Notes under the pieces: model-generated
What the model was told of the DNA's origin: nothing
Databases searched by the model: none
Seen by the model: the letters and a program-made list of their open reading frames with translations, nothing else
Origin: Candidatus Rokuibacteriota bacterium
GTDB taxonomy: Bacteria; Methylomirabilota; Methylomirabilia; Rokubacteriales; CSP1-6
Assembly: GCA_030647435.1 (NCBI GenBank)
Contig: JAUSJX010000078.1
Location: 40,878 to 104,877 of the forward strand
DNA length: 64,000 nucleotides
Reading direction: 5' to 3'
Made by a program: the position numbers and the translations under genes
Part shown: one piece after another, positions 12,446-14,752 of the stretch
Layout of the letters: each line of letters starts with the position of its first letter
How positions within the stretch are numbered: position 1 is the first letter of the stretch

Positions 12446-12749
12446 CGCGGGCCCCTGCCGGACTCGCCTCGCCTCAGACCTGGATGCCTCGTCGGAAGGT
12501 CGTCAAGCGCAGCGCCGGGCGCCGCCCCGGTCAGCCGGCGGGGCGGTTCTGGTACGGCGCGCGGAGAGCATAGCGTGGCGATCAAGGAGCAGGACGGTCA
12601 CAACCGCTTGGGTTCGCCACCAGTCTGAGGTGCACCCTGCAGGGGCATTGACTGAGCGCCGTAGATGCTGGAGTATTGTGTGGCCTCAAGGTGAACTGAA
12701 GTAGGCGGATCTGCTGTGAATCTGCTGGGCACCAGAGACGGCGAGGCGC

Positions 12750-13025
12750 GTGGGGTTTGATTGGGATCCCGAGAAGGCAGCCTCAAACCTCGCAAAGCAC
12801 GGGGTTTCGTTTGAAGAGGCCAGCTCAGTATTCGGGGACCCTCTGGCTACAACCGTGCCTGATCCGGACCATTCCTTCGATGAGGAGCGCGAGCTTACTA
12901 CGGGGCTGTCGAGCCAAAATCGCCTAGTGGGAGTTTTGCATACGAATCGCGAAGAAGTGATCCGCATTTTCGGCGCGCGCCTAGCCACACCCAATGAGCG
13001 GAGGACATATGAGTCAGGGCAGTGA
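12750..13025 (+). CDS. brnT: BrnT-family (DUF497, RelE-fold) type II toxin
   Basis: The [23 protein letters not shown]-terminal signature and the short C-terminal motif IRIFGAR are diagnostic. Confidence 0.8.
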
Positions 13026-13272
13026 CGACAGGCAGGATATGCGTCCTGAGTACGACATCCGGGGCGGTGTGCGGGGGAAGTATTTCGAGCAGTATCGCCA
13101 GGGGAAAACACTCATAGGCGGTATCACGTTCGAGGAGTCGCCATTCATCGCCAAGAGCACGGCCACGGCTGCGTCCATCGGCAGCATCACGAGAATTCCG
13201 TCATACACTCTCCCTCACCCAAGCCCGAAGATCCAGATCGGGAGCTCTGTCGCCACCGTACATGAAGGCTAA
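12994..13272 (+). CDS. BrnA-like putative antitoxin, degenerate: the N-terminal motif is conserved but no recognisable ribbon-helix-helix follows
   Basis: It overlaps the brnT 3' end by 32 nt. [16 protein letters not shown] resembles the BrnA N-terminal motif (compare MRKEFDFSKARRSEFW at 31945). The remainder diverges in all three frames. Confidence 0.4.
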
Positions 13273-13693
13273 GATTCTCCTAGCCGATAGCGCTGAGGTC
13301 CGCGAGGGCCTCCTCTTCCTTCTTGGCGGCGGGTGGGCGGAGACGGGCCCGGCACCGCAGCCGTTCGCGATCGCCGGGCTCGTCGAGGTTGATTGGGAGG
13401 AGACCAACGCACGCCACTCTATCGAATTCACGCTGGAGGATGAAGACGGTGCGCCATTGGTCGTCCCAACGCCCGCGGGAGACCAACCCGTCAAGATAGC
13501 TTCAGCATTCGAGCTTGGCCGCCCGCCTGGCAGCGTTCGCGGCAGTTCGTTCAACATGCCTGTCGCCGTCCCGATCGTGGCGCTCCCATGGACGCCGGGG
13601 CGGCGCTATGTAATCCGGCTCACTATCGACGGGGCTGAGGTGGACCGGCTCAAGTTCTCGGTCAGAGCGGGCCTGCTAGCGCCACAACGCTGA
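13262..13693 (+). CDS. Hypothetical protein, 143 aa, no recognisable family; start overlaps the BrnA-like gene
   Basis: An ORF in a lower-GC island with overlapping stop/start, which suggests co-transcription with the TA pair. Confidence 0.4.
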   Translation: MKAKILLADSAEVREGLLFLLGGGWAETGPAPQPFAIAGLVEVDWEETNARHSIEFTLEDEDGAPLVVPTPAGDQPVKIASAFELGRPPGSVRGSSFNMPVAVPIVALPWTPGRRYVIRLTIDGAEVDRLKFSVRAGLLAPQR

Positions 13694-13805
13694 AGAACTA
13701 CTGGTCTGTGGTCGCAGAAGGGAATGGTAAGCCGTCGGCTCGGCTGAGCTTAGAGGACCCCGCCCGAAACCAACGATACTACGGCGTAGCCGCCCCTGCC
13801 CCTTG

Positions 13806-14360
13806 TCAGGGTGTCACTGTGAATGGATACCGTGCGATGATCTGATCGTCGATAGTCAACTCAAGGGGCCATTCACCGGGCACCTGGACGTTGACGGATG
13901 GTAGCACTTGCGTGAACCATGTCCGAGTCGAGGTGGCAGTAGAATCACGCAACACGCGATCCTGCTGCGCTGCCAGAGTCCCGTCAGGCTTGTACCACTT
14001 GAATTTCCCCATCGGGGTGCGCCCCGACTTGTACAGATTCAAGAAGAACGTTGCAGGCTGATCCGCCTTGAATTGGGACACGGGTTCGGGGAATGTCTGG
14101 AGAGTGCCGGTCGGCGGCGTCACTTTAATGACGTACGCCCGAACCACAAGATCCTTCGGCTGAGCGGTCGCGTACTGGGCCTTAGAGCTATCCGCCCGGT
14201 ACTTCGCCACGCAGTCTTGAAACAATCTGTAGTTCCCGTCGTTGTTCTGCTTGACCCAGTACCTGCCATCAGCCTCCACACGATCAATCCACACTCCGGG
14301 AAAGTGATCGCACGCTCGCATGGCGTCCATCGTTGCATCTTGCTGGGGCGTGTTCTGCAT
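13806..14360 (-). CDS. Hypothetical protein, 184 aa, no recognisable family
   Basis: An ORF in the same lower-GC island. There is no start codon upstream of the in-frame lipobox-like LVGC, so no signal peptide is predicted. Confidence 0.45.
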   Translation of the reverse strand: MQNTPQQDATMDAMRACDHFPGVWIDRVEADGRYWVKQNNDGNYRLFQDCVAKYRADSSKAQYATAQPKDLVVRAYVIKVTPPTGTLQTFPEPVSQFKADQPATFFLNLYKSGRTPMGKFKWYKPDGTLAAQQDRVLRDSTATSTRTWFTQVLPSVNVQVPGEWPLELTIDDQIIARYPFTVTP

Positions 14361-14752
14361 CGAGCCACATCCGACAAGTACGATTGAGCTTCAGACGACT
14401 GCCCAACCCGCTAGCCGTCGGAACATCCCTCCTGGATTCCCCTTGTGCATGGGTCTCCTTCCAAGCGCCTCTGCTGGGCCTTGACCACGTTCCCGACAGC
14501 CAAGGCCTTCGAGCGCGTCGGAATCACAGGACGCTCGATCGACCGCCGCTCCCCTCGCCTCGGCCAGGGCACCGAAGCCTCCCCGCCACAACCCTCCCTC
14601 GGCAACGGACTATGGCATGTGAGAGACCCTGGGGCAATGGCGGCCGTGCACGGTCATGAGTACCCCGTGCCGCGAGACGCGCTTCTTGGTAGGAGGCGGC
14701 GCGCCGTCTATACTTGGCGCAGCGGTGCTTCCATCACATAGGAGGGTATAGA

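Follow-up and report, generated by a model that had tools for sequence, protein, structure and literature searches.

A three-gene variant of the BrnT toxin–antitoxin system in Rokubacteria, comprising an antitoxin with an exchanged C-terminus and a DUF6941 protein

The window, as we call the whole stretch of 64,000 nucleotides (nt) analysed here from contig JAUSJX010000078.1 of a Candidatus Rokuibacteriota bacterium, contains within a segment of low GC content three overlapping genes, brnT, brnA' and duf6941, which are collectively referred to as the triad (Table 1). The first of them encodes a toxin of the BrnT/DUF497 family, the second a variant antitoxin and the third a protein of family DUF6941. 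Comparison with related loci shows that brnT-brnA'-duf6941 (12750-13693) is a conserved mobile three-gene operon and a Rokubacteria-specific derivative of the two-gene BrnT toxin–antitoxin (TA) system. It is an undescribed three-gene variant of a common TA system and belongs to the type II systems of the BrnT family. An initial annotation of the window had described the arrangement of open reading frames (ORFs) correctly, i.e. BrnT, an overlapping antitoxin-like ORF, a 143-codon ORF with overlapping start, a convergent 184-codon ORF and a patatin gene. Its proposal that BrnT, an antitoxin devoid of a ribbon-helix-helix (RHH) domain and the 143-residue protein form a unit is borne out by the distribution of the three genes given below.

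Table 1. Positions of the triad, its parts and the adjoining features in the window (aa, amino acids).
Feature	Position	Strand	Description
candidate promoter element	12692..12697	+	-10-like box TGAACT, 52 nt upstream of the brnT GTG; putative function
brnT	12750..13025	+	BrnT/DUF497 ribonuclease toxin family, 91 aa, GTG start
brnA' (variant antitoxin)	13009..13272	+	87 aa; overlaps brnT by 17 nt; GGAGGA box 13000-13005
brnA' head	residues 1-33, nt 13009-13107	+	common to classical BrnT partners
brnA' tail	residues 34-87, nt 13108-13269	+	S/T/A/P-rich, predicted disordered
duf6941	13262..13693	+	143 aa, Ig-like beta-sandwich (predicted); ATG 11 nt inside brnA'
ORF184	13806..14360	-	convergent 184-aa ORF, mature part of the lipoprotein gene
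lipoprotein gene (ORF184 plus upstream signal-peptide codons)	13806..14426	-	in-frame TGA at 14391-14393; not part of the module
patatin gene	14714..15829	+	PF01734, E=2e-33

The assignment of the brnT product to the BrnT (DUF497) toxins, which the initial annotation had regarded as clear, stands. The protein matches PF04365 with E=4.5e-25 and 88.2 bits (cutoff 34.5) over the whole profile (positions 1-77 of 77), it is recognised by PHROG 4399 ("ribonuclease toxin of AT system"; E=3e-15) and it is related to PDB entry 7vd7_A ("toxin"; E=4.8e-11), with which its WD..K, R and ER..YE positions align. The GC content of the gene amounts to 0.569 and that of its third codon positions (GC3) to 0.60. 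In 14 of 59 assessable triads brnT is apparently disrupted, by clear frameshifts in at least three lineages, with the downstream genes remaining intact; frameshifted or truncated brnT accompanied by intact brnA' and duf6941 is present in L053, L060, L065, L066, L069, L110, L114, L101, L103 and L072. Such a pattern of decay is typical of an active TA system and lends indirect support to the putative toxicity of BrnT.

In the following, "classical" denotes a short BrnT partner with a strand-helix-helix C-terminus, and "tail form" denotes BrnA', i.e. the type encoded in the window. The distribution of the genes was determined from two sides. Starting from the antitoxin, one genome was scanned per species, which yielded 36 loci. 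About 30 of these are classical and belong to Binatia, Acidobacteriota, Deltaproteobacteria, Rokubacteria and others; BrnT is located upstream wherever the contig allows it to be seen, and a downstream DUF6941 gene is present in none of them. The same scan contains three tail-form loci, all from Rokubacteria metagenome-assembled genomes and each with an overlapping DUF6941 gene. In all eight tail-form loci with readable downstream sequence DUF6941 comes next (one truncated). The gene following BrnA' is intact in L001, L002, L004, L037, L129 and the P0044 contig, with the full triad in the latter three, and is truncated in L130, while in the P0046 contig a next gene of 129 residues is cut by the contig end. 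The DUF6941 side comprises 80 metagenome loci whose proteins are 59-97% identical to that of the window, 65 of which include at least 560 nt of upstream sequence. BrnT together with BrnA' precedes DUF6941 in 53 of these 65 loci, which is the co-occurrence of homologues of the 143-residue protein with DUF497 genes that the initial annotation had proposed to look for. BrnA' only is found once and neither gene in ten cases; the one remaining locus, L083, possesses BrnT and a divergent BrnA' which phmmer missed. At one syntenic site L056 carries BrnA' and DUF6941 without BrnT, and L058 and L067 carry DUF6941 only. A small antitoxin gene overlapping the toxin gene at its downstream side, as in the window, recurs with the same layout in about 100 related loci. 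Classical loci occur in many phyla, while all triads found come from genomes and metagenomes of the Rokubacteria type.

The structural peculiarity of the tail form resides in the second half of the antitoxin. Of two conceivable start codons of brnA', ATG 13009 (87 residues) is favoured over 12994 (92 residues) because most full-length homologues comprise 87 residues and because the GGAGGA box is suitably placed upstream of it. A search with the 92-residue translation retrieved 262 relatives. About 55 of them, mostly 87 residues long, align over the full length at 44-90% identity; the others are proteins of 69-77 residues which have only the first ~33 residues in common with the query. The C-terminus of the classical form is highly conserved (TNVVLLEPDVAAVFxDSxSVNxALRxLI). 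Neither BrnA' nor the classical form matches Pfam BrnA, RHH models, NCBIfam, PADLOC or solved structures. It is by its position beside BrnT that the protein may be called BrnA-like, and the strand-helix-helix pattern, read together with Makarova et al. 2009 (PMC2701414), suggests that the classical C-terminal module is of RHH type. BrnA' has no C-terminal RHH (BrnA/CopG-type) DNA-binding domain. At the nucleotide level, homology between the window gene and classical genes extends from about nt 1 to 100 and then ends. In the six frames of 12600-14000 a profile of the classical C-terminal module retrieved no trace of it (best E=2.3, compared to 1.9e-25 for the positive control), in agreement with the statement of the initial annotation that no frame encodes an RHH domain. 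An origin of the tail by frameshift was considered and discarded, since a hidden Markov model of the tail matched none of the three frames when run against 30 classical genes and the 250 nt following them. Because homology ends at about residue 33, no frameshift relation exists and nothing of the old module is left, the C-terminal strand-helix-helix module has been cleanly replaced after residue ~33.

The tail itself is translated coding sequence under purifying selection. The ratio of nonsynonymous to synonymous differences per site (pN/pS), calculated from pairs of moderate divergence among 24 unique, codon-aligned tail-form genes, amounts to 0.18 in the head and 0.35 in the tail. Variation in brnA' is greatest at third codon positions, and the GC3 of the tail is 0.72. 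Two conserved blocks of 16 and 13 residues within the tail are common to many lineages. Up to the start of duf6941 the tail frame is open in 27 of 27 unique sequences, compared to 1 of 27 for either of the other two frames and to a chance expectation of 19% for a composition-matched random tail. At the brnA'/duf6941 junction the offsets range from -29 to +11 nt, with the 11-nt overlap of the window being the commonest. AlphaFold2, supplied with a 53-sequence alignment, assigns no secondary structure to the tail (mean pLDDT 62.7). The initial annotation had called the antitoxin gene degenerate; more than 50 full-length homologues, the low pN/pS of the tail and its invariably open frame characterise it as a member of a conserved family and not as a decayed gene.

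The product of duf6941 matches PF22091 with 46.3 bits (cutoff 27) over profile positions 3-125 of 125, and PF22091 is present in 120 of 120 homologues among the matches listed. Its AlphaFold2 model is a confident beta-sandwich of ten strands (pLDDT 91.5), and the protein is acidic (pI 5.0, net charge -4.4). A structure search performed with this model returned only generic matches to Ig-like domains and carbohydrate-binding modules, headed by the DNA-contacting Ig-like domain of AlkC. We considered a SecB-like nature of the protein and rejected it, as there is neither a SecB match in Pfam nor a SecB structure among the matches listed. The protein likewise does not qualify as an RHH or helix-turn-helix (HTH) repressor, as such a domain is absent, the pI is low and the beta-sandwich is generic. 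The initial annotation had put forward that a different protein takes the place of the RHH domain. If this is understood literally, i.e. as DUF6941 functionally replacing that domain, the evidence, including the modelled fold, is leaning against it because the protein is an acidic Ig-like sandwich with no DNA-binding signature and because selection on it persists in loci without the TA genes. Since the duf6941 ATG lies inside brnA', the location of the start codon suggests that duf6941 is translationally coupled to brnA'. A search for informative domain fusions of DUF6941 was unproductive, as the long representatives turned out to be read-through or assembly artefacts, and none of the papers in the collection searched mentions DUF6941.

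A distant DUF6941 (about 40% identity) likewise occupies the third position in a row of genes on three viral contigs (L119:4244-5417, L120:2995-4111 and L124:2670-3749). Its start is abutted or overlapped by an unrelated gene for 96-120 residues, upstream of which lies a gene for 119-133 residues. The middle gene of L119 ends in an S/T/A-rich tail. Neither of the two upstream genes of these contigs has a match in Pfam or PHROG. Comprising three loci from two lineages only, this arrangement may be regarded as a lead towards modularity.

Base composition sets the insert clearly apart from its surroundings. The GC content of 12590-14700 is 60.7%, compared to an average of 69.3% (sd 2.0, minimum 61.8) for the other 2.1-kb segments of the 64 kb (z=-4.3). 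Likewise, the GC3 values of the four genes within it (0.60-0.73) lie below those of both flanking genes, namely 0.98 for the AMP-binding/acyl-CoA-synthetase-like gene and 0.87 for the patatin gene. The dip reported in the initial annotation is therefore real, and the segment is compositionally foreign, as its hint at horizontal acquisition implied; only the value it gave, in the mid-50s, was slightly too low, as local 300-nt GC values across the insert vary between 57 and 65%. Within the window the insert is not marked by a tRNA or an Rfam family, nor by convincing direct or inverted repeats at its flanks, and a tRNA-Val fragment resembling an attachment (att) site, known from L037 and L130, was looked for in the window and not found. 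A second strong GC dip of the window (62831-63907, minus strand; 0.53-0.58 over 1 kb) coincides with the gene of a 358-residue ABC-transporter substrate-binding protein (PF04392); it seems to have nothing to do with the triad.

Other loci provide a more complete picture of how the triad may move. Its GC content is lower than that of the flanks in 15 of 15 other long loci (54-64% versus 64-74%), and the genomic sites it occupies are many and unrelated. A 5.3-kb islet of L037, in which the triad is accompanied by an insertion sequence (IS) transposase, an integrase fragment and two uncharacterised genes, is enclosed by a 57-nt direct repeat of the tRNA-Val 3' half (485-541 and 5783-5839, 96% identical). 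In L130 (3369-3385) DUF6941 is interrupted after residue 41 by this att-like fragment, and in L129 the triad is flanked by rve-type IS genes. Viral contig L118 (3120-7441; IMGVR_UViG_3300045885_000628), which has a GC content of 70%, carries a full triad on the opposite strand between the portal (PF04860) and TerL genes, a position that is moron-like. No tblastn match to DUF6941 was obtained in GenBank phages or PLSDB plasmids, and motif scans of viral contigs added few loci, with most of the matches due to chance. From the sites described, the triad evidently rides on integrative elements.

Downstream of the triad lies the convergent ORF184, whose homologues have signal peptides with a lipobox (LAGC|GS). 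The signal peptide encoded in the window reads MFRRLAGWAVV*SSIVLVGCGSMQNT, the interrupting TGA being TGG (Trp) in sister strain L040; in L038 the upstream sequence looks different again. The lipoprotein gene is probably decaying in the population, or it may be re-initiated at an internal ATG. Among the 80 DUF6941 loci only L038 and L040, both nearly identical to the window, contain ORF184, while L039, about 96% identical across the triad, is devoid of window positions 13707-14488, i.e. of the ORF184 segment. The slot that separates duf6941 from the patatin gene thus varies among close strains. It is empty in L039, occupied by ORF184 in the window, L038 and L040, and filled in L041:449-2494 and L042:1331-2628 by the gene of a 402-residue J-domain (PF00226) membrane protein with an uncharacterised C-terminal domain. 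We also examined whether ORF184 represents a second DUF6941 and dismissed this, as the Pfam match is weak (E=0.007) and hhalign reduces it to a terminal hairpin of 25 residues with 36% probability. The initial annotation had listed ORF184 as the fourth gene of the low-GC island; being a lipoprotein gene which is restricted to near-identical strains and missing from so close a sister as L039, it does not belong to the module and constitutes independent cargo at a variable site of that island.

The regions upstream of the triads have the motif (g)gTAGACTg in common, located 30-55 nt before the start codon, to which TGAACT corresponds in the window. Scans for consensus promoters and terminators returned nothing above shuffle expectation and did not call the TGAACT box, and no palindromic operator conserved upstream of brnT across triads was found, the -10-like boxes being the only common element. 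Between the -10-like box and the brnT start of the window there is a direct repeat, ATCTGCTG, with copies at 12709-12716 and 12720-12727 (11 nt spacing). It is present only in the closest relatives of the window (L038, L039) and represents a candidate operator for some regulator. Classical two-gene loci of several phyla (L003, L005, L007, L010, L013, L014, L020, L024 and L034) carry an extended -10-like box, ATGCTAnnCT. Since this box ends about 7-10 nt before the brnT start, it suggests that the transcripts of these loci are leaderless or nearly so.

The closest known relatives of the triad are the two-gene systems composed of BrnT and a short antitoxin of 69-102 residues (COG2929 plus COG5304/COG3514 type; Makarova 2009, PMC2701414). 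Their toxins belong to the same BrnT subfamily (phmmer E 1e-27 to 1e-43), the toxin gene likewise comes first, the genes overlap and the antitoxin heads are near-identical. In contrast, the classical partners end in the conserved module quoted above where the window antitoxin has a disordered S/T/A/P-rich tail of ~50 residues, and they lack the DUF6941 gene which follows the latter. With the type II TA system BrnT/BrnA of Brucella abortus (PMC5086665) the triad shares a toxin of PF04365 and the logic of a toxin–antitoxin operon. The Brucella BrnA-BrnT complex, however, binds its own promoter, whereas the window antitoxin is without a DNA-binding module and without a Pfam match to BrnA or RHH; moreover, the triad has a third gene.

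A further resemblance exists to the toxin–antitoxin–chaperone (TAC) systems, in which HigBA, MqsRA, HicAB or CmdTA is combined with a SecB-like chaperone and a chaperone addiction (ChAD) tail (PMC5105189, PMC6377645, bioRxiv 10.1101/2024.02.24.581848). In both cases the order is toxin, antitoxin, accessory protein; the accessory protein also leads a life of its own; and the genes are found on mobile elements and in prophages. The variable C-terminal tail of BrnA', predicted to be unstructured and missing from two-gene relatives, may be likened to a ChAD only in part, as it replaces a module instead of extending the antitoxin and as its composition differs from that of described ChADs (PMC5105189). 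The third protein of TAC systems is SecB-like and that of the triad, showing no SecB signature, an Ig-like beta-sandwich, and BrnT is not among the toxin families which the cited TAC papers name. In paaR2-paaA2-parE2 (PMC8630535) and omega-epsilon-zeta, as in the triad, an antitoxin without a DNA-binding domain occurs in an operon with a third gene. There, however, the additional gene stands at the head of the operon and specifies a repressor of the HTH or RHH type, while that of the triad comes last and encodes an acidic beta-sandwich.

At the level of architecture the idea of a three-component system is supported, and a mechanism resembling that of TAC systems is, by analogy, plausible. BrnT would act as an RNase toxin which is neutralised by the head of BrnA', as family knowledge suggests (PMC5086665, PMC2701414). 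Deprived of a folded dimerisation and DNA-binding module, BrnA' would have become dependent on its tail. Translational coupling would keep the production of DUF6941 in step with that of BrnA', and DUF6941 would bind the extended tail, e.g. by beta-strand augmentation of its Ig-like sandwich, and would thereby stabilise or position the antitoxin. Titration or removal of DUF6941 would consequently set BrnT free, which amounts to the TAC logic with a non-SecB partner. For this reading as a whole we regard the prospects of its being right or wrong as evenly balanced. A more specific version would have DUF6941 act as a tail-binding partner or sensor which keeps the RHH-less BrnA' active and protected and which releases BrnT once it is titrated, e.g. 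by a phage structural protein or another client, with "tail plus DUF6941" forming a transferable control module for different two-gene cassettes. Although the arrangement in L119, L120 and L124 hints at such transferability, this version is rather doubtful.

Several observations weigh against a TAC-like mechanism. The contact between tail and DUF6941 is putative and assumed by analogy with TAC systems (PMC5105189; bioRxiv 10.1101/2024.02.24.581848), and the head is the probable toxin-binding part by elimination. In TAC systems the ChAD extends an antitoxin that keeps its DNA-binding domain, whereas the tail of the triad replaces a folded module. In some lineages the tail has diverged strongly, its S/T/A/V/I/P-rich composition outlasting the sequence, and its open frame may have been selected only for translational coupling. 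Furthermore, with 1,530 clusters at 50% identity (E<=1e-3) DUF6941 is a large family made up mostly of standalone proteins of 135-155 residues. The ten loci with DUF6941 alone form three clades nested among triad-linked sequences, and these clades, at least three of which are independent, are under purifying selection (omega 0.07-0.23, pS up to 0.43). Their constraint has not been relaxed after loss of the TA genes, as 0-3 changes are counted in 46 triad-conserved columns compared to 0-2 in triad clades. Purifying selection together with unchanged constraint indicates that DUF6941 has a function of its own which does not need the TA genes, and that its main role is independent of BrnA'.

This independence from the TA genes keeps alive the explanation that brnT-brnA' is an ordinary two-gene addiction or defence TA located upstream of an autonomous duf6941. 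DUF6941 would then be unrelated to the toxin and the tail would be a translated spacer, kept open only for coupling or because deletions reaching into brnA' are lethal. The preponderance of standalone family members and the selection on DUF6941 alone fit this explanation well, as do the disorder of the tail, its higher rate of evolution compared to the head and the difficulty of aligning it in some lineages. A mere spacer, however, would hardly be expected to show a pN/pS well below 1 and motifs conserved in many lineages. Moreover, loss of the old module coincides exactly with gain of DUF6941 (none of the ~30 classical loci, every readable tail-form locus), and the three genes move together among unrelated sites and elements. 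We therefore consider a passenger role of DUF6941 quite possible though not probable. Another possibility is that DUF6941 has taken over the autoregulation lost with the C-terminal module, in the manner of omega or PaaR2. In favour of such a regulator, the antitoxin lacks any DNA-binding module, antitoxins of this kind with a third regulatory gene have a precedent (PMC8630535), and the top structural match is the DNA-contacting domain of AlkC. Yet, a separate regulator is very unlikely because the protein is acidic with a generic fold, its gene is the last and not the first of the operon, and no conserved palindromic operator precedes brnT.

Even smaller is the probability that the locus is the remnant of a dying TA system which lost its RHH domain by accident and whose genes are turning into pseudogenes. 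Disrupted brnT copies in a minority of related loci, a -10-like box which in the window departs from the TAGACT consensus, and the nonsense codon in the adjoining lipoprotein gene might be taken as signs of decay. All three genes of the window are, however, intact and of full length, the profile match of BrnT is complete, and more than 50 lineages have retained the tail-form architecture under purifying selection, so that the conservation data largely refute this reading. Hardly any credence can be given to a defence system in which the TA-like genes serve as sensor or regulator of the adjacent patatin phospholipase as effector. Patatin lipases are indeed effectors in cyclic-oligonucleotide-based anti-phage signalling (CBASS) and other systems, and the gene of the window gives weak matches to the CBASS_lipase and PADLOC phospholipase models. 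The score against NCBIfam CBASS_lipase is, however, 56.4 bits at a cutoff of 200, and the gene is host-like in composition (GC 0.71 along with its high GC3). The wider neighbourhood is metabolic (FGE-sulfatase, acyl-CoA synthetase, molybdenum hydroxylase), and the slot separating the gene from duf6941 varies among strains. Above all, a patatin gene adjoins the triad only in L038, L040 and, as a partial match, L041, and in no other triad locus. The missing co-occurrence refutes this reading, and the link to the patatin gene drawn by the initial annotation dissolves into the vicinity of a resident gene.

BrnT/DUF497 systems are among the commonest TA pairs and have so far been described as two-gene systems with an RHH antitoxin. 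The locus of the window and its ~60 relatives represent a stable alternative in which a disordered tail has taken the place of the folded half of the antitoxin and overlapping frames tie a third protein to it. If no interaction takes place between the tail and DUF6941, the triad would be an ordinary mobile TA system with a passenger gene. If, on the other hand, the interaction is true, tripartite control of antitoxins, for which so far only SecB-like chaperones are on record, would have evolved more than once with unrelated folds, and a first functional handle on DUF6941, a large orphan family, would be gained. The natural series comprising the two-gene form, the triad, the triad with a dead toxin, DUF6941 with the antitoxin only and DUF6941 alone renders the system experimentally tractable.

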